From Candidatus Eremiobacteria bacterium (lineage in GTDB: Bacteria; Vulcanimicrobiota; Vulcanimicrobiia; Vulcanimicrobiales; Vulcanimicrobiaceae), in the NCBI GenBank assembly GCA_963737065.1, contig CAVTRC010000002.1:288001-352000 (forward strand): DNA of 64,000 nucleotides, in the 5' to 3' direction. A program made the position numbers and the translations under genes. How positions within the stretch are numbered: the first letter of the stretch is position 1; each line of letters begins with the position of its first letter. Positions 13,928 through 58,503 of this stretch are shown piece after piece. Below the pieces are notes generated by a model, which saw nothing but the letters and a program-made list of their open reading frames with translations, searched no databases and was not told the DNA's origin.

Positions 13928-14749
13928 TTAGCTGGCCGTTGACTGCGAGAGCGATGCGAGGTTGATGAGTTCGATGCGCGCCGGACGCGCGAAGAGAAAC
14001 CCTTGCATAACATTGCAGCCGAGTTCCTGAAGAACCGCAACCTGTTCCGCGCGCTCGACGCCTTCGGCGACGATCTCCATGTTGCAGCTCGACGCGACGG
14101 TCATAATCGCGGAGACAACCGCTTTATCGACCTTTCCACCGGGTAGATCTTTCACGAAGCAGCGGTCGATCTTTAGCACATCGGCGGGAAACGACTTTAT
14201 GCGCCCGAGCGTGCTGTAACCCGTACCGAAATCGTCGATGACGATCTTTACGCCTTCGCAACGCAACGCGGCCACCATTGCCGTGATCGCGTCGACATCG
14301 CGCATGATGCAGGTCTCGGTGATTTCGAGCCAGAGCGACGTGGGCGGGAGTCCGCTCAATGCAAGTGCGCGCTGGATGCTCTCGACAAATGAGCCGCTGT
14401 CAAACTGACGGACTGAGACGTTGATCGATACGGGAACGTTGTAACCGGCGTCATGCCATCGCCGCGCTTCACGGCAAGCTTCTTCGAGAATGAGCAACCC
14501 GATTGCATCGATCAATCCGGTCTCTTCCGCAACATCGATGAATGTTTCGGGCAGCATCAAGCCGCGATTCGGATCGCGCCATCGTACCAGCGCTTCCACC
14601 GCAAACGTTTCTCCTCGCGCCGTATCGACAATCGGTTGATAGTGCAGTTCGAATCGCCGCCGCGCGACCGCGCGTCGAAGCTCCGACTCGAGCGTAGCCG
14701 TCCCGGTACGCGGAAAATCGGTTCGCGCTAACATGGACCAGATGCTCAT
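13928..14749 (-). CDS. Stand-alone EAL-domain c-di-GMP phosphodiesterase
   Basis: YQPIVD, EALVRW, LEITE, DDFGTGYS, LKIDR and AEGVE all intact. Confidence 0.95.
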   Translation of the reverse strand: MSIWSMLARTDFPRTGTATLESELRRAVARRRFELHYQPIVDTARGETFAVEALVRWRDPNRGLMLPETFIDVAEETGLIDAIGLLILEEACREARRWHDAGYNVPVSINVSVRQFDSGSFVESIQRALALSGLPPTSLWLEITETCIMRDVDAITAMVAALRCEGVKIVIDDFGTGYSTLGRIKSFPADVLKIDRCFVKDLPGGKVDKAVVSAIMTVASSCNMEIVAEGVERAEQVAVLQELGCNVMQGFLFARPARIELINLASLSQSTAS

Positions 14750-16098
14750 GCCGATCTACCGAGCCAGCTACGATGAAATGAGGTCGCGCGTCTGCCTGCG
14801 TCGGCTACATGCCGTTCGTCCTTGGTGATTGACGCGATCGCGCGTGCAGTCTTTGCCGCGCGCCACTGAAAGCCGAGGCGATCCCAGGTGGACAAGGCGC
14901 TGTTTAAGTAGTCGAGTCCGCGTTCGACGTCACCGTTGGCGGCCGCAACCGCGCCGAAAGCGTCATATTCATATGCCCGCCAGCGATGAAGCGTTCCGCT
15001 TGCAATGAGCATCGGGTCGATCGGCTTACGAATCGCCTTGTAGCGCGCTACCATCGCTTCCGCGCGCTTGGGATTGAACGATGCCGCAAGCTCCGCGCCC
15101 CAGAGTAACGCATACCGGTCTTCGCCTTGCGTCGCGTTCCAATCGACAAGCGCGCACAGTTGTTCGGCCTCATCGAAACGTTCGCGTGCCGACAGCACTT
15201 CACCGATCGCGCCGAAGAGAAACGAACGATCCAAAATCGCTTCGATGCGCCGCGGTATCGTGGGCGCGTGGACTTCAGCCTTACGCAAATCTCGGAACGC
15301 CGCGATTTCGTTTCCTTCGAGCGCTTCGTTCCATCCGAGAGCGCGATAGACGTTATACGCCCAGCCCGGCATTTCGCCGTTCCAGGGCAACGTAGACGCG
15401 CGCGTGCGAACGAAGTTCGCCACATCGGGCATGTGCATCTCGGGGATAAGCGAAGCAAGGTTGTTCAAGAGTGAGGCTTCTGCCCATATCTCAGGTTGCG
15501 TCGCAGCGGCAAGCGCAGCCAAACCTTGTCGCAGGTAAGCAATTTGCGCTTCGTGACGCTCGTTCAGTCCTTCGATGAGGGACAGCAGCTCATACGTGAA
15601 CGCAACGGATGCTGCGGCCGGATGGGCGCCCACACTGCTATATTCGCAACCTTCGACTTCCGCGAGCGATTCCCGCGCAATGCGTTGCGCTTCCGCGACG
15701 TCCTTGCTTCGCCACGCTGAAAGCGCGACGTAGTAGTTGAGTTCGACCCGCAGCGCGGGCGCTGCGATGCCGCAAAGCGATTCGCGAGCCTCGACCCACG
15801 CTGAATCGGCACCTGTCTCATCACCTTGGCGGTCGAGAATCGTGCCGAGCAACGTGCAATAGAGCGCGCGGTCAAGACCGTTGCGCACCGTTTGTCCGGC
15901 TTGCCGGATGGCGGCTTCGGCTTCTCGTAGACGGCGCAACCGAAGAAGCGCGCGCGCGCGCAGCACGTCCGCCTCAAAGCCGGAATGGAAACGAAGAGCA
16001 CTGATGCAGTCTGCGTTACGGGCAGACGCATAGTGATCGACCGCTATATGAAACGGCTGTTGCTTCGGGACGAACGTGACGACGCGTGCTGGTTGCAG
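14746..16098 (-). CDS. TPR-like all-helical protein, probable CTG start
   Basis: Frame of ORF 14746-15966 stays open upstream to CTG at 16098, 5 nt after GGGAGG; Ala/Leu-rich helical repeats; ATGA overlap with the EAL gene. Confidence 0.75.
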   Translation of the reverse strand: MQPARVVTFVPKQQPFHIAVDHYASARNADCISALRFHSGFEADVLRARALLRLRRLREAEAAIRQAGQTVRNGLDRALYCTLLGTILDRQGDETGADSAWVEARESLCGIAAPALRVELNYYVALSAWRSKDVAEAQRIARESLAEVEGCEYSSVGAHPAAASVAFTYELLSLIEGLNERHEAQIAYLRQGLAALAAATQPEIWAEASLLNNLASLIPEMHMPDVANFVRTRASTLPWNGEMPGWAYNVYRALGWNEALEGNEIAAFRDLRKAEVHAPTIPRRIEAILDRSFLFGAIGEVLSARERFDEAEQLCALVDWNATQGEDRYALLWGAELAASFNPKRAEAMVARYKAIRKPIDPMLIASGTLHRWRAYEYDAFGAVAAANGDVERGLDYLNSALSTWDRLGFQWRAAKTARAIASITKDERHVADAGRRATSFHRSWLGRSA

Positions 16099-16196
16099 GA
16101 CGGCCTCCCGAAAAGCGAAGCTTGACGAAGACTATATAAATGCTCGCTTACTGGGTATCGGCAGACCGCACGTCAGTCTTGAGGGGTAGCGGCTAT

Positions 16197-16268
16197 TTAC
16201 TTGCCGCCCGGCCCCCCGCAGTTCGAAGCTGCAGCAACGACAGCGAGAAGAGCAATAAGCGTTAGCAT
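16197..16268 (-). CDS. Small exported peptide precursor MLTLIALLAVVAAASNCGGPGGK (23 aa)
   Basis: AGGAGA RBS, ATG at 16268, TAA at 16197-16199; hydrophobic core then Cys-GGPGGK. Confidence 0.65.
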   Translation of the reverse strand: MLTLIALLAVVAAASNCGGPGGK

Positions 16269-16376
16269 GGCCGTCTCCTAATGTTGGCTTGTAGAGAGTT
16301 GGACCACGCCGACGGCTTACGCGATCGGGTGGCACCCCGTACCCGCCTATTCCTCGGCCGCTTTACGATCCCTTTG

Positions 16377-17354
16377 CTATCCCGATACGAATCTTTGACA
16401 ATATGGAACGCGGGCCGCCGGTCGCCTCGCGGAGCGCATCAATCGGGCGCGGTTGCGCGGTGCGCGCAAGGCCTCTAGCTCTTCGAGCGTCCGCGGCCAA
16501 TCGGCGCCGAGCAATCTCGAGAGCGCGCGATCCGCGAGGAGTTTTCCGCCCGTTTGGCATCGCGCGCAATAGTTCGTTTCGTTGTCGGCGTAACGAATGC
16601 GTTGCACCGGGTCGCCGCAACGCGGGCATGGCTTGCCGTAGCGGCCGTGTACTGCCATGTCTTTGCGAAATGCCGTGACTTTTTCCGGAAAATGCTCGCG
16701 CGCTTCGGAAGCAAGACGATCGATCCAAAGCTCGAGAACCTCTCGCGTAGCATCGTAAAGTCGTTGCCATTCGTCATCCGTAAGTTTTTGCGTCATCGCA
16801 ATTGGCGAAAGCTTTGCATGGTGCAGGATTTCGTCCGAGTACGCGTTGCCGATGCCATCGATGATGCGCGGGTCCGTAAGCGTGCGTTTGAGCGTGTGGT
16901 TTTCGCGCGAAAGCGCGTGGCGAAACGTTGCCGGATCCGAAGAAAAGACGTCGATGCCTCCCGGGTCGATCGAGCGCAACGCATCTCGACTTTTGAAGAC
17001 GTACAACGCAGCGCGATGCTTCGAACCAGCTTCAGTCAAGACGAGCGAACCGCTCGGAAAGTCGAGTGCTGCAAGGGTATTGCGCCCGGTGAGCGCTGCG
17101 CCGCGCTCACGCCAATGCAGTCTTCCGGCGATCATGAGATGGAGCGCGAGCCAGAGGTCCTCGTCGAATCCAATCGCAATGCGTTTGCCGATGCGCCGAA
17201 GTTCGCGAACGCGGTGATCGTCGAGCGCAGAAACCGGCGGATCGGCGGTCCGTAGCAAAAACGGATTGCCGATGCGAACGCGTTCGAGCCGTTCGCCGAC
17301 GATGCGTCGATCGAGCGCTGTGATGTATGCCGTGATATCCGGGAGCTCGGGCAT
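16377..17354 (-). CDS. Fpg/Nei family DNA glycosylase
   Basis: N-terminal PELPD, HLMIAG, H2TH GIGNAYSDE, zinc finger CPRC...CARCQ. Confidence 0.95.
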   Translation of the reverse strand: MPELPDITAYITALDRRIVGERLERVRIGNPFLLRTADPPVSALDDHRVRELRRIGKRIAIGFDEDLWLALHLMIAGRLHWRERGAALTGRNTLAALDFPSGSLVLTEAGSKHRAALYVFKSRDALRSIDPGGIDVFSSDPATFRHALSRENHTLKRTLTDPRIIDGIGNAYSDEILHHAKLSPIAMTQKLTDDEWQRLYDATREVLELWIDRLASEAREHFPEKVTAFRKDMAVHGRYGKPCPRCGDPVQRIRYADNETNYCARCQTGGKLLADRALSRLLGADWPRTLEELEALRAPRNRARLMRSARRPAARVPYCQRFVSG

Positions 17355-17357
17355 CGC

Positions 17358-17915
17358 TCACCGCTCGAGTTTGATATCGAGAATCGCCGCGGCTTCCGCA
17401 AGCGCCGGGTGATCGATCGTCAGCGGTTCGATTCCGCTCTCCCTCACGATCGTGACATCCCACAGACCGGCACTCTTCCAACGCGCATCGTTGAACGACC
17501 ACCATGCAATCCCGCTAAACTCGCCGCGGTCGAAAATTCGCAACGACCAATTTTGCGATTGCGAATAGTCGCGAGTGATGACGTTCGACGGCCGCAAGCC
17601 GAATTCGATCAGCCGATGCGGATCGTCTAGATCGACGATTGCCGCGTCATGGGCAACGTCATACCACGCGAGCGATCGCACGAGATCGGGATACCGGCGC
17701 AACGGAAGCATATCGGCCGTCCACTTCAACCGGTGCGCACCGCGATAGAAGACTTCGGCGCACGCACCTGCAGGCGAATCTCCGACGTAGAGGACGCGGT
17801 ACTGTTGCGGATTGTCGATGCGTCCGCCGCCTTGTTGCGCCGGAATGTAAAGAACGCCGCCCGGTTCGTCCGGTGCGGCGTTCGAATCGTGGAGAAGAAC
17901 GCGATAGAGCCTCAC
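17358..17915 (-). CDS. RES-domain toxin
   Basis: R (GGRIDNP), E (CAEVF) and S (GIAWWS) motifs; GTGA overlap with the antitoxin gene. Confidence 0.85.
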   Translation of the reverse strand: MRLYRVLLHDSNAAPDEPGGVLYIPAQQGGGRIDNPQQYRVLYVGDSPAGACAEVFYRGAHRLKWTADMLPLRRYPDLVRSLAWYDVAHDAAIVDLDDPHRLIEFGLRPSNVITRDYSQSQNWSLRIFDRGEFSGIAWWSFNDARWKSAGLWDVTIVRESGIEPLTIDHPALAEAAAILDIKLER

Positions 17916-18346
17916 GCGAACGCGCCGGCAGCAATCGCATCGATTGCGCCGATGACGCGAGCCGGCCCGGAGATCGTCAATACATTGATCGGGATGCTAT
18001 TGCCGAGCAGCGCCTCGGGCGACGCAAGCCAAGGCCCAACGTCTTCGGGATTCATCACGTGCAATGCGCGATCGATGATGTACTCAACGTCGCTGACGCG
18101 TCGGGCGAGCGCCGGGCTCACCCGCTCGTGGCCCTTGATGCAGCGATTGAGCTGCGACTTATCGACGTCGAGAATATCTGCTGCGGCGGAGAGCCCCAGC
18201 GCAGTAATCACGCGCTCGAGTTTCGGCTCGACCGGAAAAGCCTCGTCGGCATTCGGCTTGAGTTCGATCACCCGGTCGGAGCGCACGTTCCAGCGCATCA
18301 GCGCGGCGCGGCGACGCGAAGCCTTCTTGCTGCGGGTAATGGCCAT
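17912..18346 (-). CDS. Xre/MbcA/ParS-type antitoxin
   Basis: HTH (AADILDVDKSQLNR) and C-terminal WL..P..LLG..PI...GAFA; GGAGGT RBS. Confidence 0.85.
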   Translation of the reverse strand: MAITRSKKASRRRAALMRWNVRSDRVIELKPNADEAFPVEPKLERVITALGLSAAADILDVDKSQLNRCIKGHERVSPALARRVSDVEYIIDRALHVMNPEDVGPWLASPEALLGNSIPINVLTISGPARVIGAIDAIAAGAFA

Positions 18347-18365
18347 TGGTTTACCTCCCGCCTGC

Positions 18366-18417
18366 ATTATACTCCACGGAAAGCGTGGAGCCAAGTCGCG
18401 TCCACGCAAACCGTGGA
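18366..18417 (-). promoter_or_regulatory. TA operon promoter with two palindromic operators
   Basis: TTGGCT-17-TATAAT on the minus strand; TCCACG-N5-CGTGGA palindromes at 18372-18390 and 18401-18417. Confidence 0.8.
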
Positions 18418-18425
18418 GAAGGGCG

Positions 18426-18800
18426 TCAGAGGCCGCCGTAGGGACCCGTCGAGGAACTGTAGCTCCCGCTGCCGCGCGCATCTTTGACCTCTTGGTACCA
18501 TAGCGCGATGATCAGCAGCGTCGGAACCCACTGGCCCACAAGAAGTGACTCGTGTTTCCGGCCCATGAAGTTTAACGCGAGCGATATGCCGATCGAAAGT
18601 CCCGCCGCGCCGAGCAGTAAGCTGCGCTTGGTGGAATTCGTCGGTTCCTGGGCGTCATTGCGTTCGGTAGCTTCGCTGATCGCCGCGGCAGCGCGCCCGG
18701 CGCTCGTGTCCGTTGCATCGCGGATGCTGCCCGTAATTGATTCCGCTGCGGAACCCGCAGCGCGTTCCATCGATGAATCGGTGCTGTCGTATGTGCTCAT
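18426..18800 (-). CDS. Small membrane protein
   Basis: Polar N-terminus then two hydrophobic segments (GLSIGISLAL; VGQWVPTLLIIALW). Confidence 0.7.
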   Translation of the reverse strand: MSTYDSTDSSMERAAGSAAESITGSIRDATDTSAGRAAAAISEATERNDAQEPTNSTKRSLLLGAAGLSIGISLALNFMGRKHESLLVGQWVPTLLIIALWYQEVKDARGSGSYSSSTGPYGGL

Positions 18801-18840
18801 GAGGTCGCCTTACCCAAATGCGTTTACGCCGAACGCGCAA

Positions 18841-18868
18841 ACATGCGCGTTTCGCCGAACGCGCATGT
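18841..18868 (-). terminator. Perfect 11-bp hairpin downstream of the desaturase
   Basis: ACATGCGCGTT-6 nt-AACGCGCATGT; short T tract on the minus strand. Confidence 0.5.
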
Positions 18869-18895
18869 CCGCACGACGGGTAACGGAGTAGGCGC

Positions 18896-19795: not shown

Positions 19796-19838
19796 GATGC
19801 CATGCCCTTGGCATGTGCGTACGCTATATTAGCCAGGT

Positions 19839-20367
19839 ATGGATCCCTTGCTCGCCGTGGCGCATCTTCCGAAGCTTGCTGAACAAGCTATGCGCGCCTC
19901 GGTTATCGGTGCGCTCCAACGTGGACGTATGGCGCATCGCGCGGTGATCGATGATGCGCTCGTGCGCTTCGAACGCGACGTGCAAAGTTACGCGACCGAA
20001 GGGGTGCGGCCGGCGGTTTTGTTCGCCGAGCGCGATCGCATCGTACGCGAGCTGCGCGGCTTCATCGACGGCCGTCTCGCTGCGCGACTGGCGGAAGTGC
20101 GCCGGCGTGACCTGGTTGCGACAGCGGTAGGCTCGGCGCCGTTCGATGCAATTGTACGCAACCGTTTCGGCGATGCGTACGCGCGTCGTGCTCAGGCGCA
20201 TCCCTCCTGGCGCAAAACGGCTCGGAGTTATTCGACGCATCGCGCGGGCGGCCGAACGCTACAATTGCGTTCGGCTAAGCGGAGTGGTCCTCTACGACTT
20301 CACATCAGCGAGCACGCGTCTCTTGGCGGAAGCGCCGAGTCGCGCTTCCCGCCGCTCGGTGGCCTAG
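19839..20367 (+). pseudogene. Hypothetical protein, probable frameshift in the A-run near 20215
   Basis: As given, the ORF runs 186 bp into the convergent LuxR gene; removing one A in CGCAAAACGG gives HPSWRKRLGVIRR... ending at 20367, just before 20373. Confidence 0.5.
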
Positions 20368-20372
20368 CCGCC

Positions 20373-20864
20373 CTATACGATGCCGGCACGCAACGCGTGA
20401 ACTGCAACTTGCGTGCGCGCTGTGAGATGCAATTTCGCGAGGATGTGCGAGACGTGATTCTTCACCGTTTTGTCCGACAGCTGCAATCGCATGCTGATTT
20501 GTTTATTCGAAAGACCTTCGGCGACGAGGCGGACCACTTGGAGTTCTCGTTCGGATAAGAGAGACCGCCAATCCGTTCCGCTTGGAACGGGCTGAAGATG
20601 TCGTGACGGCGCGGACGGCATTGCAGCCAGCGACTTTACCGTCGCGATGAAGTCTGCGATCGGGACGTCGTGCAGCACATCGAGCAACGACTGATCGATA
20701 ACGACGTGGGCGGCCGGGTGATCGGAGTCATTCGTTGCGGACGTGCCGACGACCGCGATGCCGGGATCGAGCTGAAGCAGTCGCGCGATCGCGGTGCGAA
20801 CAGCAGAATCAGCACCCACTATAAACGCTGACGTGACGTCAGCTTGGGATGATGCAAGGGACAT
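20373..20864 (-). CDS. NarL/LuxR-family regulator with a degenerate receiver domain
   Basis: LSERELQVVRLVAEGLSNKQI...KTVKNHVSHIL HTH; shortened N-domain lacking the acidic pocket. Confidence 0.85.
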   Translation of the reverse strand: MSLASSQADVTSAFIVGADSAVRTAIARLLQLDPGIAVVGTSATNDSDHPAAHVVIDQSLLDVLHDVPIADFIATVKSLAAMPSAPSRHLQPVPSGTDWRSLLSERELQVVRLVAEGLSNKQISMRLQLSDKTVKNHVSHILAKLHLTARTQVAVHALRAGIV

Positions 20865-20923
20865 GGTTGCCTTTCCGTGGCTCGGCTGGCGCCAGCATAA
20901 TACGACGTCCGGCTTTCTCGGGA

Positions 20924-20962
20924 CTTACGGACTAATTACAGCGCCATTACAAACCGATTACA
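20924..20962. promoter_or_regulatory. Four direct repeats with 11-bp period
   Basis: TTAC at 20925, 20936, 20947 and 20958; the last three read ATTACA. Confidence 0.7.
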
Positions 20963-20967
20963 CTGGT

Positions 20968-23743
20968 ATGGTGCCCGCTGCGACCGTCGACCGGGTGCGA
21001 CTGCGTAGCCGCTTGGAGCGGTTGCGGCCGGCTATTGTCGTGCTTGCAGCGCCCGCCGGCTACGGGAAAACTGCGCTGATTCGGTCGCTCTACGGGGCCG
21101 ATCCCGACGCGCGGATCTGCGATTGTGACGGATTACGCGACGAGCTCGACCTCGCGCGGCGGCTGATGCCGGAAATCGACGCTGAGCTGAGCGACGGCGG
21201 CCGAACGATCGCGGAACGCGTGTCGCTCGCGCTCGACTTCCTTTCGCTACACGCGCCCGGCCGAATGATCTTCGACCGCGCGCGCTTCATCGGGCGGCAT
21301 CCCGAGGCGCTGAAGTTTTTTACGCAGATATTGGAGCGCCGCTCGGCCGGAACGACGATCGTCATCTCGGCACGCGACGCCGTTCCGTTGCGGCTGACGC
21401 GCTACGCCGCCCCGCACGAGATCATCGTGCTCCGCGCCGCCGATCTCGCCTTCGATCGCGACGAGCAGCGCGCGCTCTTTGCCCCTTACGTGACGGAAAA
21501 CGCCGCGCTGGAACGCATCGCTGAAGTTTCCGAAGGGTGGCCGATCGCGGTGTTCTTGCTGCAGCGTTTCGCGCGTGAAGGAAGGCTCGACGAACTTCTA
21601 CATCGCTTGGATGACGTCGCGTTCGACGAACTGCGCGATTATCTCGTCGACGAAGTGTTTTCGCTCTACGATTCGCCGGCGTTGTTCGCTTTGTTTGCAT
21701 GCGCCGCGATGCCGCACGCTACCGACGCCGATGTTCGCGATGCGTTTCCCGAATGCGTTGAACGGAACCGCACTCGCCGAGTTTGCCAGGGAGTCGCCGT
21801 TCCTCCGGCGCGACGCGGAAGGGCGCTATCGCGTGCATCCGCTCGCCGCGGCCGCGGTCTTGGCGCATCAGCACGAGCGGCAACGTCTGCTCGTGGCGCA
21901 ACTCGCACGTGCGCGTGAAGGCGACGGCGATTATCTTCGAGCGGCCGAATTATACGTCGCGAATCGTGATTTCGACGCAGCGGCGAGAGCGCTTGCGCGC
22001 TACGACGTTTTGCCGATGGCGCGCCCGCCGCAGCGATATCTCGATCTGCTGAACGGGTTTACACCCTCACAGCTCATCCGCTATCCGCAGCTTTTTGGCG
22101 TTCACGCGCTGATGCGGCTCTTTCGCGATTCGCCGCAAGCACTTCTCGACGAAGCGGAGTCGCTCTGGCGAACGATACCGCGGGCGGCGTTGCCGCGCGA
22201 GCGTTATGCGCTCTTGGTGCTTCGCATGCAGTTGCTCGCATATCTCGGTGAACACGCGCGCGCTTGCGAGCAACTGCAAGAGGCAATCGGTGGCGCATCC
22301 GGTACGAGTCTAGAGACGTCACTTCTGCCGATGCGCGCCTTCGTTCGCGCGCGTTGCGGTGAGCTCAGCGCTGCGACCGGCGACATCGACCGTTCGTTGC
22401 CCGCGATCATGGAAGCCGATGGGATGGCAGCCTGCTTGTATGTGACGATGGCGGAAGTCGCGCGCATACGCGGCGATCGCACGGAAGTGCAATTTCTCCA
22501 AAGCGCGCTCGTACGTGCACGCGAATCGGGTTTCGCAAACCTGCCGGCATTGGTGCTCGCGCAGATCCTGGTTGGCGCGTGGCTCTGCGGAGACGACGAG
22601 CGAGCGCGCGGCGCAGCCGAAGAGCTCGGTCGATCAATCGCAGGCGGCGTTTGCGCTTTTACGTACGTCAGCGGGACGATGCTCCAACGCGACGTCGCTC
22701 CGTCGCCGCGCGATCTGCCGGAATTCGTAATTTACGGAAACCTCATCGAGCTCGTCGATACGCTCGACGAACGGCGGCGGCTGGAACTTGCGCGTGCAGC
22801 CTTCGAACGTGCCGAGCGCCTCGGTCATGCGTTTCTCTCCGTCCTTACTTGCGTGGCACTTGCGCTCGTGGATGAAGCGAATTTTGCGGAGCACGCCGCA
22901 TGCGCGGCGGAGTGTGCAGCATCAATCGACTCGGACGCATTACGAAGCGCCGTTTCGCGCCTCGTCGAGCGAAAACTGGATTGCGGCATGCTATCGGCGT
23001 TCGTCGCGCGCCTCACTCGGGGGGAAAGCGTCATTGCGCCGCTCGACGTCTCGCTCGCGAGCGGGCGCGTTCGCGTCGATGGTGTGCCGGTCGCAATTGC
23101 GCGCCGCGAGCTTGAACTTTTGCTCGCAATTGCGAGCAAACGAGAACCATCGTCGCGCGCCCGGATCGCATCGCTGCTCTGGCCTGATCTGGACGATACT
23201 GCGGCGCGCAACGTTTTTAGCGTCTGTCTTCATCGCTTGCGCGCGCGTCTGCCGCGGCGTGACGCGATCGAACGCGACGGCGACGGATATCGGCTGCATG
23301 CCCATGCGTTCGTCGATCTGTGGGAGGTCGACCGCGCGTTGCGCACTGCGCGAAAGAAAGCGCCGCTCGATGAGCGAGACCGCGCGCATCTCGAGCGCAT
23401 ATGGTCGGTCGTGAACGACGGCGGCTCGCTTTGCGGCGAGGAGTGGGAATGGTTTGAGCCGATCGCGCACCGTCTGCACGAGGCGCGCGTCGAGCTTGCG
23501 CAGATCCTTGGAGACGATGCGCTCGCGCGCGAAGATGCCGTGACGGCACTGCAGTATTCGAAAGCGGCACTCCACGCCGATCGTTGCGACGAACGCGCGG
23601 TCGAAATCGGCATTCGCGCGCACCTAATAGACGGCGATCGTGCGGCCGCGATGCGCCTCTTCCGGCAATACCGCAGCGCGCTCGCCGCTGAACTCGGCGC
23701 TGAGCCGTCGTCATTGCTTTCCGCGCTGGTAAAAAGCGCATGA
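20968..23743 (+). pseudogene. MalT-like ATPase/TPR regulator with C-terminal winged-helix and BTAD (SARP-like) domains; frameshift near 21750
   Basis: APAGYGKT, DLAF and EGWP in the first frame; FPNALNG...YRVHPL, wHTH and DRCDE...AELGAEPS in the second; one extra C in TTTCCCGAAT. Confidence 0.8.
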
Positions 23744-24420
23744 TGTATGTGGTTCTCGCGCTCGCGCTTACGCAGGTCGACGTGCTGATCTCCGCCGGAC
23801 ACGAGGGCCGGCCCGCATCGTGCGCTCGCTATCCCAAGCGCGCCTGTAACTTAGGGGCGCACGGCGAACGCGAATGGACGCCCGTCGTCGCCGATGAAGC
23901 GGCGCGCGTCTTGCGCGAACACGGCGTTTCGGTTGCGCGAGAACCGGCAGACTTCGACGGCACGTACGATGTCGATGCCGCGGTGTTCATTCATTTCGAC
24001 GGTTCGACGTCACCGTGTTCGAGCGGCGCATCGATCGGCTATCACGAAGAGCGGTTCGCGCCGGTCGCGCGACAATGGCGTGCGCTGTACTCGCGCTACT
24101 TTCCGTACGGATTTGAACCCGACGACTTCACCGTCGGCCTTCGCGATTATTACGCGTTTCGTCAAGTCGATGCGCGCGACGCTTCGCTCGTTCTCGAACT
24201 CGGCGAATTGACGTGTCCGCCGCAGCGTGCGTGGCTAGCGCCGCGCCTTGCGTTCGAAGGACGCTTGATCGCGTACTTTCTGAGCGGGCTGATCGGCAAA
24301 GGGGACGTGCCGTTACCCTCGGCCAACATCGCAACCCATGCGTCAACTGCCGTTAGCACTGACCGCGCTCGTCGCGTCGCTCGCGCTCATTCCGTGCCGC
24401 GCTCACGCATCCGCCGCTGA
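23740..24420 (+). CDS. N-acetylmuramoyl-L-alanine amidase (Amidase_3-like)
   Basis: Zn ligands ISAGH, GERE and FIHFD; catalytic VLELG. Confidence 0.8.
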   Translation: MMYVVLALALTQVDVLISAGHEGRPASCARYPKRACNLGAHGEREWTPVVADEAARVLREHGVSVAREPADFDGTYDVDAAVFIHFDGSTSPCSSGASIGYHEERFAPVARQWRALYSRYFPYGFEPDDFTVGLRDYYAFRQVDARDASLVLELGELTCPPQRAWLAPRLAFEGRLIAYFLSGLIGKGDVPLPSANIATHASTAVSTDRARRVARAHSVPRSRIRR

Positions 24421-27400
24421 TCCGTTCTCCGGCTTAACGTGGCGCAATGCCGGCCCGGCTGTTTCCGGCGGCCGTCTTGGCGCGGTCGCGGGAACCGATC
24501 GAGATGCGTCTTTGTATTACGCGGGCGCGGCCGGCGGGGGCGTATGGAAGTCGACCAATGCCGGCGCGACGTGGACGAGCGTCTTCGACGGTCAGGACGT
24601 GCAGTCGATCGGCGCGATTACAATCGATCCGGTCGAAAAAGAGACGGTCTGGGTCGGCACGGGAGAGTCCAATCCGCGCAACGATGTGACGCAAGGCGAC
24701 GGCATCTATAAAACAATCGATGGCGCAAAAACGTGGACGCGCGTATTGATGCTTCACAACTCGCTCGTGAGCCGCATCGTGGTCGACCCGCGTAACACCG
24801 CGCACGTGGTCGCCGCCGTACTCGGCGATCCGTTTGCGAACAGCGAGGACCGCGGTATCTACGTGACGACCGACGGCGGCGCGACCTGGAAGAAAACGTT
24901 ATACGCCGGTCCTTCAACGGGCGCGTCCGACCTCGTGGCGGATCCGAAAAACGCGAGCGTGCTTTTCGCCGGTATGTGGCAGTATCGCCGTACCGGCTGG
25001 AGCTCCGATAGCGGCGGTCCGCAGGACGGATTGTTCGAATCTACCGACGGCGGCGAAACGTGGACGAAGCTTCACGGCAACGGGTTGCCAAACGAAACGA
25101 TGGGCAAGATCGGTCTCGCGATCGCGCCGTCGAATCCGCAGCGTATCTACGCGCTGATCGAAACGAAGCACGGATTGCTCTGGCGTTCCGACGATGGCGG
25201 AGCAACGTGGCAAGCGACGACCGCGGACCCGCTCATCGACGAGCGTCCGTTCTATTACAGCAAAATTTTCGTCGATCCGGCCAACGCCGATCGCGTGTGG
25301 ACTGAGAACGTGCACATGACCGTCAGCGTCGACGCGGGCAAGCACTTTACGATTACGGGACGAGGCGTGCACGGCGATCACCACGGCATGTGGATCGCGA
25401 ACGACGGGCGGCGGATTATCGAAGCGAACGACGGCGGCGTAGCGTTCTCGCGCGATGGTGGCGCAACGTGGCAATGGGAAAAGAACTTACCGGTTTCGCA
25501 GCCGTATCACATCGGTTTTTCCCGCGAATCGCCATATCGCATTTGTCTCGGATTGCAAGATAACGGAATGTGGTGCGGTCCGTCCAATCCCCTCAATCCC
25601 GCCGGCATCAGTTCGAGTCAATGGATGCGAACCGGCGGCGGGGACGGCACGTGGACGCTCTTCGATCCTCGCGATCCGCGGTATGTATGGCAAACGGCGG
25701 GCGGCGGTAATTTTGCGGGGGCGCTTTCAATTCACGACTTCACGACCTCGGAAACGAGAGAGGTCGGCCCATACGTGCGCGACCAGAACGTGATCGATCC
25801 GAAAGCAATGCGTTATCGCTTCAATTGGGAAACACCGATCGCGTTCGATCCGTTCGACCGTAGCCGCGCGTACACCGCGGGCAATGTGCTCTTCACGAGC
25901 AGCGATCGCGGCATGACATGGTCGCGCATCAGCCCCGACCTCACGCGCAACGATCCGTCACATGAAGTCGTCACCGGCGGAATCACGCTCGACGGAACGG
26001 GCGCCGAAACGAGCGACACGATTCTCTTCATCGAGCCCTCGCGCGCCGCGCGCGGCGAACTCTGGATCGGAACCGACGACGGCCTCGTGCAACTGAGCCG
26101 AGACGGCGGCAAGCATTGGAAAAACGTCACGCCGGCGGGCATCGCGCCTTTCGGACGTTTCGCTTCGATCTCCGCGTCGTCGACCGACTCCGCGACCGCG
26201 TACGCCGTCTATGACTTGCACATGACGGGCGACCGCCGTCCGTACGTATTCGTCACGCATGACTACGGCGGACATTGGACCGGTATCGCAGACGGTCTGC
26301 CGAGCGATGACGAAGCGCGCGCGATTCTCGCCGACCCTCGCGTTGCGCACGTGTTGTATCTCGGCCTCGAGCGTTCGTTGTGGGCGTCGTGGGACGACGG
26401 CGCGAGCTGGCAACGGATCTCGAGCAATCTTCCCGCGCTCTCGATGCGCGACATCGAGCTGCAACCCGACCGTAACGATCTGCTTGTTGCGACACACGGT
26501 CGCGGCGCGTGGATCCTCGACGACGCCGCCGCGCTGCAACACTATGCACAAGCGCGTCGTGCTGACGTCTATCTCGTGGCGCCGCGCGACGCGATCGAGT
26601 GGAATCGCTTCTCGTATTGGGGAACGCGCACGGACGGAGCGGGTCCGGAATACGGAGCGATCATCACTTATTACATGAGATCAGCGGCATCCAACGCCCC
26701 GACGGCCGAGGTCATCGACGAGCATGGAGCAGTCGTACGGCGCTTCACGACGCACGAAGAAGCCGGCAAAGAAGTTGGGGATCTGAGCAATGACCCGGGG
26801 TTCAACCGCTTTGCGTGGGATTTAACGAGCGAAGACGTGCATCCGTGGACGTACGCGCCGCAATGGAACCGCACAACGTTCGCGGGCGGTGCACCCGTCG
26901 TACCCGGGCGCTATACCGTGCGGATTCACGTCGACGGACGAACGTACGCGCGCGCCTTCGTCGTGCGGCAAGATCCCCGCACGCACTACACGATCGCGCA
27001 ATTGAAGGAACGGCGTGCACGCGTACAGGGACTGCTCGGCGATCTTTCGCGTGTCGACGACGCGCTCAATACGCTTGGCGCCGTGGCGGCAAACGGACCG
27101 TCGCGTGTCGCAGCCTTGAACGCCTCGGGTAATACACGTCTCGCGCGCAGCATCGACGCACTTGTGCAGCAGACGCCCGCGCTGATCGCGTCGTTCACGT
27201 CCAATCCGAAAAACGATCAGGACAACGACTTTTTGCCCGACGTCCTGCGCGAACGGCTGCAAACGCAAATCGACACATACTTCGATTCGCTTGCGCCCGC
27301 GACCGCGGAACAACGCCGCGAAGACGCGATCCTGCACCGCCTGACGCAAACGCAGCTCGCCGCATTCGCGCCGTTTGCCGTGACCGTCCGAAATGCCGAT

Positions 27401-27445
27401 GCGCAGCTGCGCGCGGCGAAGATGCAGCCGTTGGATGGACGCTAA
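24338..27445 (+). CDS. Secreted BNR/Asp-box repeat beta-propeller protein (VPS10/glycosyl hydrolase-like)
   Basis: Many S/T-x-D-G-G-x-T-W Asp boxes; WRNAGPAVSGGR start; ATHGRG. Confidence 0.9.
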   Translation: MRQLPLALTALVASLALIPCRAHASAADPFSGLTWRNAGPAVSGGRLGAVAGTDRDASLYYAGAAGGGVWKSTNAGATWTSVFDGQDVQSIGAITIDPVEKETVWVGTGESNPRNDVTQGDGIYKTIDGAKTWTRVLMLHNSLVSRIVVDPRNTAHVVAAVLGDPFANSEDRGIYVTTDGGATWKKTLYAGPSTGASDLVADPKNASVLFAGMWQYRRTGWSSDSGGPQDGLFESTDGGETWTKLHGNGLPNETMGKIGLAIAPSNPQRIYALIETKHGLLWRSDDGGATWQATTADPLIDERPFYYSKIFVDPANADRVWTENVHMTVSVDAGKHFTITGRGVHGDHHGMWIANDGRRIIEANDGGVAFSRDGGATWQWEKNLPVSQPYHIGFSRESPYRICLGLQDNGMWCGPSNPLNPAGISSSQWMRTGGGDGTWTLFDPRDPRYVWQTAGGGNFAGALSIHDFTTSETREVGPYVRDQNVIDPKAMRYRFNWETPIAFDPFDRSRAYTAGNVLFTSSDRGMTWSRISPDLTRNDPSHEVVTGGITLDGTGAETSDTILFIEPSRAARGELWIGTDDGLVQLSRDGGKHWKNVTPAGIAPFGRFASISASSTDSATAYAVYDLHMTGDRRPYVFVTHDYGGHWTGIADGLPSDDEARAILADPRVAHVLYLGLERSLWASWDDGASWQRISSNLPALSMRDIELQPDRNDLLVATHGRGAWILDDAAALQHYAQARRADVYLVAPRDAIEWNRFSYWGTRTDGAGPEYGAIITYYMRSAASNAPTAEVIDEHGAVVRRFTTHEEAGKEVGDLSNDPGFNRFAWDLTSEDVHPWTYAPQWNRTTFAGGAPVVPGRYTVRIHVDGRTYARAFVVRQDPRTHYTIAQLKERRARVQGLLGDLSRVDDALNTLGAVAANGPSRVAALNASGNTRLARSIDALVQQTPALIASFTSNPKNDQDNDFLPDVLRERLQTQIDTYFDSLAPATAEQRREDAILHRLTQTQLAAFAPFAVTVRNADAQLRAAKMQPLDGR

Positions 27446-27630
27446 GCACGGTCGCGATGGCAAGGCTGCTCGTCAAATATTCCGGCTACCGGCGAGCGGC
27501 TATTTTCGCGGCCGAGAACGCGCTGTTGGACGGGAAAGTGCGCTTGCTCTATCTAGAGGAGGACTGTATCGGTTACTATGAGGGCGAGGATGAGTATCCA
27601 GCGGCGTTCGAAGGGCTCACGTAGGAGCCA

Positions 27631-30291
27631 ATGATCCGACCGGTTCGCCCCGACGGTACGATCGAGACCGGCGGAGTGTTCGTACCGATCCAACGGCGGC
27701 GCGTGCTCGACCGTATTGCGTCTGCTGCAATGCAGCGCGTCGTCCTCATCGTCGCACCCGCGGGTTACGGCAAATCCGTCGCATTACGCCAGTTCTTAGA
27801 GCGAGTCGACGGCCCGTACGTTCGCTTCGACGTTCTCTCCGACAACGGTGGATTGCTCGGATTCCTGCGCGGCCTTTCCGATGCGCTTGTCGAGGTCGCG
27901 CCCGATGCGCGCGCGACGCTGGCCGGTGCATATGAAAAGAACGCGGCGTCCGCATCGCCGGGAGCCGATCTCGCGCTGTGGATGCATTCGCATTTGAAGT
28001 CGTATCGCGGCGTGATCGCGATCGACGATCTCCACGTCGCGCAGGACGATCGCGAAGTCACGCGATTCCTCGCATCGCTCATCGACCGGACGAAGGGACG
28101 GGTCCAGTGGGTCATTGCGTCGCGGTCGACGCTCGGACTTCCGATCGGCACGTGGCTTGCCTATGGTGACAGCGATCTGGCAATCGACGAGCATGATCTC
28201 AAGTTTTCGGTGGAAGAAGCCCGCGATGCCGCGCGCGCGTTTCGCCTCGCCGTTCGCGACGAAGAACTCTACGAACTGTTAAATCTTACCGACGGCTGGG
28301 CCACCGCGATGACGTTTGCATTGCGTTCAACCACGCGTTCGGTCGAGCTGCGTAACATCTCGTCGATGACGCGCGACATGGTCTACCGGTATCTCGCAGA
28401 GCAGGTCTACGAGACGCTTAACGACGAGGAATGCCGTTTCATCGAAACCGCGGCGCTGCTAGGCGAGATCGACGTGGACGCTATGGTCGGCGCCGGTTTC
28501 GATCGCGCGTCCGCGATGCTCGATAATTTGCGCCAACGTGTCGCGTTCATTCACGAAGGCGAGCCGGGCCACTACCGCCTCCACGACCTTTTCCGCGAAT
28601 TTGCGCTTCACCAACTGAACCTTCGCGGCAAAGACGTCGTCCTCGAGTATGCCGCGTCGATCGCGCAATCGCTCGAAAAGAAAGCTGACTGGGTCGGGGC
28701 GGTTCGGCTCTACACCGAAGCGCGCGATGCTTCCGCGCTAACGCATCACCTCGAAAAGCAGGGCCTCGACCTCGTTTCGCGCGGCCACGCGGATGACGTC
28801 GAGCGCGCACTCCACGTTATTGAAGAAGCCGGGCAGAGTTCAACGCCCGTGTTTGCGATGCTTCGCGGGACGATTGCCGTCGCGCGCGGGCGGTACGCCG
28901 AAGGCGAGTCGCTTTTACGTTCGTCGGTCGGACGTCTCGAAGATCCCGTCGTGCGCGCGGATGCGGCGACTCGGCTCGCGCTCTTAATGTTCAACCGGCA
29001 CGATGACGTCTCCGAGGTGCTCAACGGGATTTTGTCGGATTCGCGTCTCGATCACTGCCGGCAGCTCGAAGCTCGAGCGATCGTGGCGGCGTGGTATGCG
29101 CATGCTTCGCGCGAGGCGGAAGCGCGGAGCGAGATCAACATCATCGAACGCGAAATCGAGGGTTTGACCGACCAGTCGTCGCTCGCGCGAGTCACGCAAC
29201 GGCTTGGATTCGCCTACATGCGCGTCGGCGACATTACGAAAGCCACGCAACGCCTAAAAGTTGCAGTCGAAATTGCGACCGCACGCGGTATGTGGAGCTT
29301 GGCGGCACGTGCCTACCTATTGCTTTCGGCGATCGCATTTTTGAACGAGAACCAGTCGACGCTGAGTCTGTGGAACGCGCAACAAGCAGCCCTCGCTGCC
29401 GGGCGCGCCGGCGACTATCTTGACTTACAATCATCGCTGCTCACGATCCTTAGTATCGAAAATCGGCGCGGTAATGCGGAACGCGCGCAGCAGGTCGAAC
29501 GGCAATTGGCGGAACTTGGTTCGGCCGATTCGTCGCGCGTACATTACATCACATCGAGCCAGGCGCATCGGCACGCGTGGAACGGACGATACGCGGACGC
29601 GCACCGGCTCTTCGGCAGCGTTCTCGGACGACAAGCGTATGAGGCGGACCGCGTCCTGATTCATTCGCTGTACGCCCTCTCGCTCGCGCTCGACGGACAA
29701 GCGCGTGAAAGCGCCGATGCGGCCACGACTGCCATCGACGTCATTGACCGGACAAGCGACACCGCCGCGTACGGCGAGCTGGTCGTCGAGGTGTCGCGGT
29801 TGTTCGTTATCGCGGCCGAGGTCGCGAGCGGCCGGCTCACCGCGGCGACGCGCCTGCTGAAGAAGCCGCCGCGTTCCGATCACGACATTGCGCGCTGCAT
29901 GCACACGATCGTCGAGGACCTTCTGCGCATCGCCAGGAGCTCGTCGTACGAACCTGAAGAGTTCTCTGCCCGCCTCGAGACCGTACGGGACTTCGGCCTC
30001 GGCGGCTACGCGAAATACTTTGCCCTGGTGCGCGATCATGTTGAATTTCGGCACGACCACCGTGCCGAGATGGAGATCGCTCTCACACCGTCAGAGCTGC
30101 GCATTCTCCGTGCGTTAGCCGCCGGAATGTCTCCGAAGGAAATCGCGGCCGATATGGGGCGGTCGGTCTACACAATCCAGACACATATCCAGAACTTGAT
30201 TGAGAAACTAGGCTGCCACGGTAGAGCAGAAGCGATTGCGGCGGCCCGGAAGCGAGGGTTTCTAGTGGCCGGAGGTAACGGCTCTACTTAA
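27631..30291 (+). CDS. MalT-like LuxR regulator (ATPase, helical repeats, HTH)
   Basis: APAGYGKS, IDDLH, DGWA, YRLHDLFREF; C-terminal LTPSELRIL...TIQTHIQNL. Confidence 0.92.
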   Translation: MIRPVRPDGTIETGGVFVPIQRRRVLDRIASAAMQRVVLIVAPAGYGKSVALRQFLERVDGPYVRFDVLSDNGGLLGFLRGLSDALVEVAPDARATLAGAYEKNAASASPGADLALWMHSHLKSYRGVIAIDDLHVAQDDREVTRFLASLIDRTKGRVQWVIASRSTLGLPIGTWLAYGDSDLAIDEHDLKFSVEEARDAARAFRLAVRDEELYELLNLTDGWATAMTFALRSTTRSVELRNISSMTRDMVYRYLAEQVYETLNDEECRFIETAALLGEIDVDAMVGAGFDRASAMLDNLRQRVAFIHEGEPGHYRLHDLFREFALHQLNLRGKDVVLEYAASIAQSLEKKADWVGAVRLYTEARDASALTHHLEKQGLDLVSRGHADDVERALHVIEEAGQSSTPVFAMLRGTIAVARGRYAEGESLLRSSVGRLEDPVVRADAATRLALLMFNRHDDVSEVLNGILSDSRLDHCRQLEARAIVAAWYAHASREAEARSEINIIEREIEGLTDQSSLARVTQRLGFAYMRVGDITKATQRLKVAVEIATARGMWSLAARAYLLLSAIAFLNENQSTLSLWNAQQAALAAGRAGDYLDLQSSLLTILSIENRRGNAERAQQVERQLAELGSADSSRVHYITSSQAHRHAWNGRYADAHRLFGSVLGRQAYEADRVLIHSLYALSLALDGQARESADAATTAIDVIDRTSDTAAYGELVVEVSRLFVIAAEVASGRLTAATRLLKKPPRSDHDIARCMHTIVEDLLRIARSSSYEPEEFSARLETVRDFGLGGYAKYFALVRDHVEFRHDHRAEMEIALTPSELRILRALAAGMSPKEIAADMGRSVYTIQTHIQNLIEKLGCHGRAEAIAAARKRGFLVAGGNGST

Positions 30292-30361
30292 ATTTCAGTA
30301 GAGCGTCCGCGCTCGTCACCCCGTATTGTGAAGATAGTCACTTGTCCTGAGGGGGTTTACT

Positions 30362-30451
30362 TTGATCACCGCTGCTGTTCTCGTTGTCGCGCTCGTCTCC
30401 GCCGCCGCCATCGCGCACTGTGAATTTCCTCCCGGCACCATCGGCCACTAG
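30362..30451 (+). CDS. Small exported peptide precursor MITAAVLVVALVSAAAIAHCEFPPGTIGH (29 aa)
   Basis: GAGGGGG RBS 6 nt before TTG; TAG at 30449-30451; hydrophobic core then Cys-EFPPGTIGH. Confidence 0.65.
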   Translation: MITAAVLVVALVSAAAIAHCEFPPGTIGH

Positions 30452-30476
30452 TTCGAACCGCTAAGGCTTTCCAGAA

Positions 30477-31460
30477 ATGCCCGCCGCTCGCACGCTAACC
30501 TCCCTTGGGGCATCGCTTGGCCAAGAGGTCCCTGCGCTTGCCGCTAATGCGGTGAAGCAGCTGACCCTCGCCGCGACGACCAGCGAGCCGGACATTGAAA
30601 AGTCGCTCGAACTGTTGCTGGATCGTCTCTGTCTTTCGCTGACGCTCGCCAAACCGGTGGGGCTTGCCGCTTGGGCTGAGCGCGAGGCGCTCAAGTTCGG
30701 CCGAGCCGGCGTTATGGATCTTACCATTGCGGCCACCCATACGCTTTGCACCGCAGCGTTGGCCTACGAGGCCGACCAGCGGCGGGTGTTGGCGTTTCTC
30801 GATGTCCTCGCTCATGAAATCGAGCGGACCGCGCTCGGCGTCGACACGGCCGAATCGGAATTCTCCGGCCTCGACACGACCGATGCGCTCTTGGCCATGC
30901 TCGGCGAGCGCGACTACGGCACGTGCTGCCATTCGAAGGCGACGGCGGAGTGGGCGCGCCGGCTCGCAACCGCGATGGGGTGCGATGCGGAGACGACGGA
31001 GTTCGTCGAACTCTGTGCGCTGCTTCACGACATCGGAAAGATCTCGACGCCGGACGGCGTGCTTTTGAAAGAAGGACCCCTTACCGCAAGCGAGTGGGAC
31101 GTCATGCGCGATCATGCGGCGGCAGGCTCGCGGATTCTCCATCAGATCCCGTCGCTGCAGCGCTGTTCCGTCGTCGTACGCGCGCACCACGAGCGCTATG
31201 ACGGCGGCGGATACCCGGACGGGCTCACCGGCACGAGTATCCCGTTCGAAGCCCGCGTCGTCGCGGTGGCCGACGCGTTTCACGCCATGATCAGCGAGCG
31301 TCCGTACCGGCGCCCGATTCCCCCGCGACAGGCACTCCAGATTTTACAAGAAGGCCGCGGTTCTCAATGGGATCCCGAGGTAGTCGACGCGATGATCGGC
31401 ATGTTCAGCCGTCGCCCGTTGACCGCCGCCCAAGAACATGCGCACCTTTCCTCAGCGTAG
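30477..31460 (+). CDS. HD-GYP phosphodiesterase with helical N-terminal domain
   Basis: LHDIGK, HHERYDGGGYP, VADAFHAM, RPYR. Confidence 0.93.
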   Translation: MPAARTLTSLGASLGQEVPALAANAVKQLTLAATTSEPDIEKSLELLLDRLCLSLTLAKPVGLAAWAEREALKFGRAGVMDLTIAATHTLCTAALAYEADQRRVLAFLDVLAHEIERTALGVDTAESEFSGLDTTDALLAMLGERDYGTCCHSKATAEWARRLATAMGCDAETTEFVELCALLHDIGKISTPDGVLLKEGPLTASEWDVMRDHAAAGSRILHQIPSLQRCSVVVRAHHERYDGGGYPDGLTGTSIPFEARVVAVADAFHAMISERPYRRPIPPRQALQILQEGRGSQWDPEVVDAMIGMFSRRPLTAAQEHAHLSSA

Positions 31461-31571
31461 CGTCCACGCCGAGGAAAGCCCCGCTATCGGGTGGTGGGCA
31501 GAGGCGCCGTTTCACGGCGCCTCTTTAATTTATGCCATGCAGTTGGCACTGACGCGTGCGAGACTGGGGCC

Positions 31572-58313: not shown

Positions 58314-58503
58314 TTTGTCCCACCATTGGTCGCGTGTAGGCTTTGATTCTCCCACCAACGACCACACAAGAACATCACCCAACAATCGGTGAGTCGTTAT
58401 AGCCGTATACGCGTGACGAAAGTCCCACCCCAAAAACGGGTTTCAAGTTGGGGGTAAACGGTGGCACACTAAAGCTACAAACGATACAGCGGGACGAAAT
58501 ACT

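Follow-up and report, generated by a model that had tools for sequence, protein, structure and literature searches.

Putative peptide signalling on MalT-type sensors, linked to cyclic di-GMP turnover, in Vulcanimicrobiaceae

Overview

The stretch of DNA analysed here – hereafter the window – comprises 64,000 nucleotides of contig CAVTRC010000002.1 (positions 288,001 to 352,000, forward strand) from the Candidatus Eremiobacteria bacterium assembly GCA_963737065.1, and contains two loci, A and B, at each of which a micro-peptide gene lies beside the genes for a helical-repeat protein and a predicted cyclic di-GMP (c-di-GMP) phosphodiesterase. Both micro-peptide open reading frames (ORFs) are real, conserved coding genes, and the two helical-repeat components – the tetratricopeptide repeat (TPR) protein TPR-A at locus A and the sensor domain of the locus B regulator – are, judged by profile alignment, homologous members of one family. 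We consider it probable, from sequence and gene order, that these loci represent RRNPP-like secreted-peptide signalling on MalT-type sensors, feeding c-di-GMP turnover and present lineage-wide in Vulcanimicrobiaceae.

A first-pass annotation of the window had placed six genes at the two loci, and all of them, the ribosome-binding sites of both peptides included, lie where it put them; its small-peptide observation at both loci is thereby confirmed. It had also taken the host for a diderm, which is borne out by relatives identified by name as Vulcanimicrobiota/Eremiobacterota, by an Omp85 gene in the window's own genome and by the outer membrane of the phylum's cultured representative, as described in PMC9758169. 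The six genes are as follows.

Locus A
16197..16268, minus strand: propeptide A, 23 aa, hydrophobic leader and Gly-rich tail SNCGGPGGK (Shine–Dalgarno (SD) sequence TAGGAG)
14746..16098, minus strand: TPR-A, 450-aa all-helical putative peptide receptor (probable CTG start with GGGAGG; AlphaFold2 model, pLDDT 96)
13928..14749, minus strand: stand-alone EAL c-di-GMP phosphodiesterase, 273 aa (Pfam EAL, E 2.6e-72; motifs)

Locus B
27631..30291, plus strand: MalT-like STAND/LuxR regulator, 886 aa, putative peptide receptor (Pfam AAA and GerE; MalT model E 2.7e-41)
30362..30451, plus strand: propeptide B, 29 aa, hydrophobic leader and Pro-rich tail EFPPGTIGH (TTG start, SD GAGGGGG)
30477..31460, plus strand: predicted HD-GYP cyclic-dinucleotide phosphodiesterase, 327 aa (HD_5, E 2.8e-39; present in 47 of 48 loci)

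The architecture is shared, as first annotated, insofar as both loci have the same parts; the order differs, the peptide preceding its receptor at A (98 nt apart) but following it at B (70 nt apart). At locus A, furthermore, the ATG of the EAL gene overlaps the stop of the TPR-A gene, an arrangement that points to translational coupling.

Two receptors of one family

The homology of the two receptors was – together with a promoter box described below – missed in the first-pass annotation. A profile of the A family matches the B sensor with its helix-turn-helix (HTH) domain at 99.4% over 446 columns, and the sensor without the HTH at 96.7% (E 4.7e-10, 359 columns), versus less than 0.2% for controls that were reversed, shuffled or taken from the NTPase and included no unrelated TPR family.

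The TPR-A model is a TPR superhelix, for which VIA-align gives RapI as the top match (Z 20.9, root-mean-square deviation 4.9, 340 residues aligned, 9% identity) and, as further matches, a phage Rap (18.9), APC6 (18.7), OGT (18.4), NprR (17.3) and MalT domain III (17.2). The Foldseek list consists for the most part of TPR proteins from eukaryotes, a Rap coming in at rank 14, and the ESM Atlas matches are generic TPR clusters only. The protein has no DNA-binding or ATPase domain; its sole Pfam match is TPR_2 (E 0.0045, below the cut-off), and one homologue passes the cut-offs of TPR_2 and TPR_12. Counted from the CTG start, its first 44 codons are conserved in congeners.

Regulator B consists of an NTPase (Pfam AAA_16/22, with Walker A and B motifs APAGYGKS and IAIDDLH), a helical-repeat sensor at about residues 400–805 and a C-terminal LuxR-type HTH (GerE), and the top Foldseek hits of its model are 6mfv, a STAND protein with a TPR sensor, and 8bob, MalT. 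With members of the MalT/LAL family it thus shares a NOD module, a superhelical sensor and a C-terminal LuxR HTH. It differs in scoring 141.5 bits against the NCBIfam MalT equivalog, far below the cut-off of 537, in having a peptide gene instead of maltose genes alongside, in its hypervariable sensor, in a proposed inducer that would be a self-encoded peptide and in a palindromic box, MalT boxes being asymmetric. By architecture, regulator B is therefore a MalT-type STAND protein, but not MalT.

Conservation of the peptide genes

A search with regulator B finds matches in 123 of 151 family genomes, paralogues included. Of 59 loci collected (L numbers below denote compared loci, and G000 the window's own genome with its contigs C1 and C2), 10 duplicates and one truncated locus were set aside to leave 48 distinct ones, and the order regulator, small ORF, HD-GYP is kept in 47 of these, 46 times with an intact peptide. 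In the remaining case with HD-GYP, L080, the peptide is apparently frameshifted in its leader; L088 is without peptide, HD-GYP and box. Among 19 more distant loci, a clear peptide is present in 17, in one of them with its core repeated three times, and in L162 the peptide sits beside the regulator although HD-GYP is missing. Genome tallies throughout include unpublished genomes – G100 (L005, L043), G051 (L008), G041 (L025, L099, L107) and others – on which the conclusions do not hinge.

The B-family peptides, 20–44 aa long, combine a hydrophobic leader with a Pro-rich tail of 6–10 residues (such as DMPPTGN, NYPPTGMG, DLPGPSVG and EIPPTVG). Across six disjoint pairs, 27, 12 and 45 changes fall at the first, second and third codon positions, with 30 synonymous versus 31 non-synonymous codons. 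For propeptide A, known in four alleles from the window and three congeners (GGPGGK, GGIGGK, GGAGGK and GSAGGGK, in four genomes), 14 of 19 changes between the window and G114 are at the third codon position, giving 12 synonymous versus 3 non-synonymous codons. A metagenome scan added one locus, whose peptide DNA is identical to that of L170.

The Cys and Pro-Gly that the first-pass annotation took for a shared motif of the two tails fared less well: Cys occurs in 27 of 46 B peptides, at variable positions, and Pro-Gly in 17 of 46 and in one of the four A alleles, so the motif is incidental. In a scan of the own genome for ORFs of 15–50 aa, 58 passed an SD and hydrophobicity filter; among the 35 short-frame ORFs listed, of which 12 lie outside long ORFs, peptides A and B alone have both Cys and Pro-Gly, a filter applied post hoc. 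A thiolactone peptide of the AgrD type, which would have an invariant Cys at a fixed distance from the C-terminus, was discarded as a candidate on the same Cys counts and positions.

A predicted promoter for peptide B

Between the regulator and peptide B lie two further elements.

30284..30301, no strand assigned: 18-bp (near-)palindromic operator-like box CTACTTAAATTTCAGTAG, at about -52 to -35 of the predicted peptide/HD-GYP transcript start (+1 near 30336)
30324..30329, plus strand: putative -10 element TATTGT, at fixed spacing to the box and suggested by leaderless cases

The box was found by pattern in 41 loci, and a matrix built from those gave a best site in the other six (3–20 bits); in all 47 loci with HD-GYP, a TANNNT hexamer follows the best site 22–23 nt downstream. 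Its arms co-vary (CTAC/GTAG, CTAG/CTAG, CTACCC/GGGTAG), and 14 of the 19 more distant loci have a box of at least 13 bits at the same spacing. In three of the latter (L156, L158, L161) the peptide's ATG comes 6 nt after the hexamer with no SD sequence, which marks the hexamer as the probable -10 element of a leaderless transcript and would centre the box near -43, the position of a class II activator site. We infer from this an activator-type promoter for the peptide gene and HD-GYP, with the adjacent LuxR-type regulator as the protein that would bind the box. In the own genome there is one strong box (34 bits) and three weak sites (11–16 bits); as shuffled genomes give 2–8 hits, no wider regulon is claimed.

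The arrangement resembles LuxR/lux-box autoinduction, in which the box likewise lies near -43: the B palindrome would replace the -35 element in front of the presumed signal gene. The systems differ in that the signal here would be a ribosomal peptide, with no LuxI, and in that the sensor is a STAND repeat domain, not an acyl-homoserine-lactone-binding domain.

Divergence of sensors and tails

Across the 46 B loci, mean identity is 0.40 for the sensor, compared with 0.71 for the NTPase and 0.65 for both the HTH and HD-GYP; in a paralogous clade of STAND-LuxR regulators the gap is smaller (sensor 0.51, NTPase 0.61). Between the window's sensor and those of two loci with [ED][FL]PPG tails, identity is 83% and 79%, and it is 42% to that of a congener with a DMPG tail; HD-GYP identity is 85% in the comparison with 83% sensor identity and 82% in that with 42%. 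The sensor switch is, in other words, abrupt.

Co-variation of peptide and receptor, a check proposed in the first-pass annotation, was tested on the 46 loci, with L080 left out. After removal of the NTPase and HD-GYP signal, tail and sensor give a partial Mantel r of 0.11–0.17 (p 0.008–0.046, for tails of 7–10 residues), the leader in the same test -0.11, and 19 disjoint pairs a rho of 0.59 for the sensor, 0.47 for the NTPase and 0.32 for HD-GYP. The overall association thus appeared, but it vanishes among close relatives (see below), and, as kin are not independent, it counts as suggestive only.

The TPR-A family and its precursors

Relatives of TPR-A occur in 107 of the 151 family genomes, with up to 11 matches per genome. 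A profile search found them in 97 of 113 genomes of the family and in 1 of 3 and 1 of 15 genomes of two sister families of the class; matches elsewhere in the phylum are weak (E about 1e-11 to 1e-16), and a pattern scan of species genomes with TPR-A alone gave no relative. A C-terminal LuxR HTH is present in 19 of 24 scanned homologues, picked mostly for length. Three receptor formats can be recognised: the MalT-type helical-repeat sensor may belong to a full STAND/LuxR factor, as at B, carry a LuxR HTH and nothing else, or stand by itself, as at A, each receptor gene having its own propeptide gene beside it in the scheme we propose.

The family set comprises 77 genes in loci, of which 10 without upstream sequence were excluded. 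Under one fixed filter, 38 of the 67 scored genes (57%) have an upstream ORF with an SD sequence and a hydrophobic leader, as against 31 of 1286 control genes (2.4%) of the own genome – the 31 passes including peptides A and B themselves – and the filter misses several plain peptide cases visible on inspection. A conserved small ORF beside receptor homologues, whose absence the first-pass annotation had named as a refutation, is therefore found at 46 of 47 B loci and 38 of 67 A genes. That the adjacency is incidental, small hydrophobic ORFs being common and the two loci unrelated, has become hard to credit: although 31 control genes pass the same filter and the gene order differs between A and B, the enrichment, the conservation at B, the synonymous bias and the homology of the receptors contradict it.

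Short cores repeated in tandem, in 2 to about 18 copies, are found in 17 of the 38 precursors (for example DSGGSISG, STHGGAVD, ASPLGGSGIL, DSVGGGLP and PLDVHGV), and some A-family repeat precursors exceed 100 aa. The own genome's second TPR-A member (G000 C2:3425-4933), which bears an HTH, is preceded by a 67-aa ORF with three copies of DSIGGPS. In this third cassette (L169:3428-5156, or G000 C2:3425-5159), an 18-bp palindrome, CTAGTAGGGTGCTACTAG, lies directly upstream of the ribosome site of the 67-aa propeptide.

A leader followed by multiple cores is also the layout of precursors of ribosomally synthesised and post-translationally modified peptides (RiPPs), and Cys occurs in 27 of 46 B tails; the repeat ORFs might accordingly encode RiPPs or secreted antimicrobial or kin-marking peptides, with the TPR proteins as maturases, immunity factors or regulatory partners. 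We regard this as very improbable. Among 63 ORFs flanking 22 loci (within about 1.5–3 kb) there is no radical SAM enzyme, YcaO, lanthipeptide enzyme, AgrB or C39 transporter, and the neighbours do not recur, which led us to reject a RiPP cluster; no residue of TPR-A is invariant across 100 sequences, nor does the protein have an enzyme-like domain, and many members carry a LuxR HTH.

Somewhat less remote, yet still improbable in our estimate, is that the small ORFs encode membrane micro-proteins, or leader peptides with a regulatory role, that act on the downstream gene or enzyme, the sensor's ligand being a metabolite as for MalT. Each peptide is indeed the first gene of its transcript, upstream of a phosphodiesterase, co-variation among close pairs is nil, and the MalT sensor binds maltotriose (PMC10427625). 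Yet the peptide is retained in L162, which lacks HD-GYP, and next to most of the TPR-A genes without a phosphodiesterase; a leader followed by many copies of a core is hard to explain as attenuation; and three B peptides appear leaderless, which leaves no room for upstream control.

A third kind of precursor may exist in the paralogous STAND-LuxR clade, about 32% identical, in most loci of which a lipoprotein peptidase follows – presumably a subtilase/S53 enzyme, to go by its sequence. The N-terminal tether of this peptidase repeats a core ending in LPG or MPG (xxxxxLPG): 14 of 20 loci have two or more copies by pattern, and L135 was recognised by eye. The own genome encodes one such peptidase at C1:456891-458117. 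The STAND locus concerned (G000 C1:456891-460810) has DSAAALPG repeats on the peptidase and an OppA-family gene about 2 kb away, and at G000 C2:433077-437468 the genes after a STAND regulator encode an HD-type protein and a lipoprotein peptidase in which no repeats are obvious.

Several other arrangements were seen in the A family. In L098 and L102 (G080 and G004), one long repeat propeptide precedes three tandem TPR-A genes, which suggests several receptors per signal, or eavesdropping copies. In L125 and L128, a lipoprotein-like repeat propeptide and an HTH-bearing TPR-A stand beside an adenylate/guanylate cyclase-AAA gene, possibly a cyclic-nucleotide output in another genus. In L045 (G040), the regulator of locus B is preceded, at a distance of about 0.7 kb, by a gene of the TPR-A family, with a homologue of the window gene 23740-24420 in between. 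At locus A itself, the spacer between peptide A and TPR-A (window 16110-16190, minus strand) keeps GGTCTGCCGATACCC and GCGAGCATT in three congeners though not family-wide, and the two may be a promoter or RNA element. CTGCCGA, which emerged from a Gibbs search around the A-family peptides, was rejected as a family-wide motif (7.4 bits versus 6.8 in shuffled sequence, at scattered positions).

A proposed mechanism and the case against it

In the mechanism we envisage, the leader would take the propeptide to the membrane, a protease would free the tail of 6–10 residues (approximately EFPPGTIGH and SNCGGPGGK in the window), and an Opp/Dpp-type transporter would re-import it to bind the groove of the sensor. 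At locus B, the bound regulator would exchange ADP for ATP, bind the palindrome at about -43 and switch on the peptide and HD-GYP genes – a positive feedback loop that would lower c-di-GMP at high density or in confinement. At locus A, the HTH-less receptor would gate the translationally coupled EAL protein by direct contact, whether by activation or inhibition, as Rap proteins gate theirs. Everything from export onward, the sign of each step included, is inferred. The own genome has 16 matches above the cut-off for SBP_bac_5 (the OppA family), 12 of them near full length, and an ADP/ATP switch is described for MalT in PMC10427625. A complex prediction of the L011 receptor with 32 residues of its repeat propeptide scored 0.01, which speaks neither for nor against binding.

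Several observations weigh against peptide signalling of this kind. The loci compared are top-scoring relatives and not an independent or random sample. The match of TPR-A to Rap, at 9% identity, is not clearly above those to the generic TPRs APC6 and OGT. None of the 46 B leaders has a Lys or Arg among its first five residues, which makes them atypical as Sec signals. Tail–sensor co-variation is weak and mixed, the partial value being -0.01 among 118 close pairs, while L038 and L069 combine near-identical sensors with unlike tails. In the A family, 29 of 67 genes fail the strict filter, among them all four second copies in tandem arrays (0 of 4 pass); of the 15 members fused to an HTH, only 4 get through; two of the 38 positives look spurious; and the Gibbs search around the peptides gave no promoter motif common to the family. 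Finally, only 10 of 68 A-type genes have a phosphodiesterase gene after them – an EAL gene in five close orthologues, an HD-type gene in five scattered cases – so that the c-di-GMP link there is recurrent, not general.

Leaders without a positively charged n-region also suit an alternative in which the peptide serves its own cell only, as an intracellular or membrane-bound ligand whose tail is released or exposed there, for example by an intramembrane protease, and reports secretion or protease activity; the receptor would work in the same way, with no cell-to-cell signal. Two M50 intramembrane proteases are encoded in the own genome, and some precursors are lipoprotein-like (10 of 46 B peptides have a lipobox-like sequence) or fused to a lipoprotein peptidase, and so tethered. 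We think this alternative unlikely, albeit the most serious of those considered, because fast diversification of tail and sensor together with many-copy cores fits a diffusing, diluted signal selected for specificity better, as does the expanded OppA family.

The secreted-peptide reading can be extended to an independent, STAND/MalT-derived pheromone language of the Vulcanimicrobiaceae, in which a genome would hold up to about 10 orthogonal peptide–receptor pairs. Precursors would come in three formats (micro-peptide with one tail, propeptide with tandem repeats, and repeats carried on a lipoprotein peptidase) and receptors in the three named above (STAND-LuxR, sensor-LuxR and sensor alone), and a core autoinducing circuit would set c-di-GMP. 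This broader picture is, in our view, quite possible but falls short of probable.

The link to c-di-GMP

The first-pass annotation saw c-di-GMP breakdown through two enzyme families, and the catalytic motifs are intact in both: HDIGK, HHE..DGGGYP and RPY in HD-GYP, and EAL, NVS, LEITE, DDFGTGYS, KID, AEGVE and QG in the EAL protein. The substrate of HD-GYP may be c-di-GMP, cGAMP or pGpG. The enzymes thus resemble other stand-alone EAL and HD-GYP phosphodiesterases, and differ in that no sensory domain of their own is recognised and control would be linked to a peptide, through coupling at A and a common promoter at B. The EAL gene is placed after the TPR gene in L001–L005 and L170. Judged by gene neighbourhood, c-di-GMP coupling is near-fixed at B and a minority arrangement for A.

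The exopolysaccharide synthase encoded at 61550, proposed by the first-pass annotation as a downstream target, did not hold up as a conserved output. It is an NfrB-like glycosyltransferase with a c-di-GMP-binding motif above its cut-off and could therefore respond to the global c-di-GMP pool, but it occurs patchily (11 of 151 family genomes), could not be found in three congeners in which locus B is retained, and has no strong operator box nearby in the own-genome scan; we do not count it as part of the system. Its surroundings (window 56439-63394) form an NfrB-like operon – a BcsB-like protein, a TPR outer-membrane-like protein and the GT2 protein with the c-di-GMP motif – with a divergent DUF2334 gene, likewise patchy in the family.

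Relation to RRNPP systems

The first-pass annotation had drawn an analogy to the RRNPP systems (Rap-Phr, NprR-NprX, PlcR-PapR, AimR-AimP, Rgg-SHP). It holds for the small hydrophobic-leader propeptide directly beside a cytoplasmic TPR-fold protein, for internally duplicated mature peptides, for receptors that are either transcription factors or HTH-less allosteric partners, and for RapI as the top fold match of TPR-A. As given in PMC10075063, RRNPP criteria comprise a propeptide of 10–100 aa, a gene gap of -60 to 400 bp, a Sec signal or SHP/PptAB-type export, a receptor of 250–500 aa, a TPR hidden Markov model match of E < 1e-5 and an N-terminal HTH. Propeptide sizes (23 and 29 aa) and gene adjacency (98 and 70 nt) fall within these ranges, as does TPR-A with its 450 aa. 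Mature-peptide repeats are reported for 6.7% of large RRNPPA propeptides in PMC9765709, with PMC11343458 as a further source on repeated cores.

The system is not filed as RRNPP, since receptor B is too long (886 aa, with an NTPase) and its HTH is at the other end (C-terminal and LuxR-type, GerE, versus N-terminal). Further differences are the diderm phylum, a sensor traced by profile to MalT-type STAND proteins and with 9% identity to Rap, linked outputs that are c-di-GMP phosphodiesterases, leaders without n-region charge and cores carried in some cases on lipoproteins or peptidases.

In the literature searched, for the most part open-access papers, neither peptide signalling in this phylum nor a MalT-type regulator induced by a peptide was found described. 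PMC10075063 presents peptide quorum sensing through cytoplasmic TPR receptors as a trait of Bacillota. If the proposal is correct, a widespread Gram-negative soil lineage with a parallel form of it would revise that Bacillota-only picture, extending cytoplasmic-receptor peptide quorum sensing across a Gram-negative family and providing an example of a STAND transcription factor whose inducer is a secreted peptide of the cell's own – and with it a class of peptide ligands for the STAND regulators of bacteria. The genomes offer dozens of natural peptide–receptor pairs and an explicit operator and promoter, which makes the proposal testable in Escherichia coli without culturing the host; the signals, if real, might help to grow or disperse hard-to-culture bacteria and yield orthogonal peptide-responsive parts.

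Neighbouring genes

One gene adjoins locus B directly.

31491..32027 (probable start 31572), plus strand: conserved gene after HD-GYP, of no known family (unmatched in Pfam and NCBIfam)

Its homologue, recognised by eye at the N-terminus, comes directly after the regulator in L088 and after the peptide in L162.

Elsewhere in the window, a STAND regulator with AAA and BTAD domains is spread over two overlapping frames (20794-23743, plus strand); congeners have one open frame of 933–1067 codons, and the split marks a pseudogene or else stems from an error in the assembly. The LuxR-HTH gene at 20373-20864 is transcribed divergently, and no peptide was seen beside this STAND regulator. The genes at 17358-18481 (minus strand) encode a RES-domain toxin and an Xre/MbcA/ParS-type antitoxin, an ordinary type II toxin–antitoxin pair, and at 34243-37677 (plus strand) a two-component pair is followed by a 1144-aa TonB-dependent-receptor-like protein with a long C-terminal extension.

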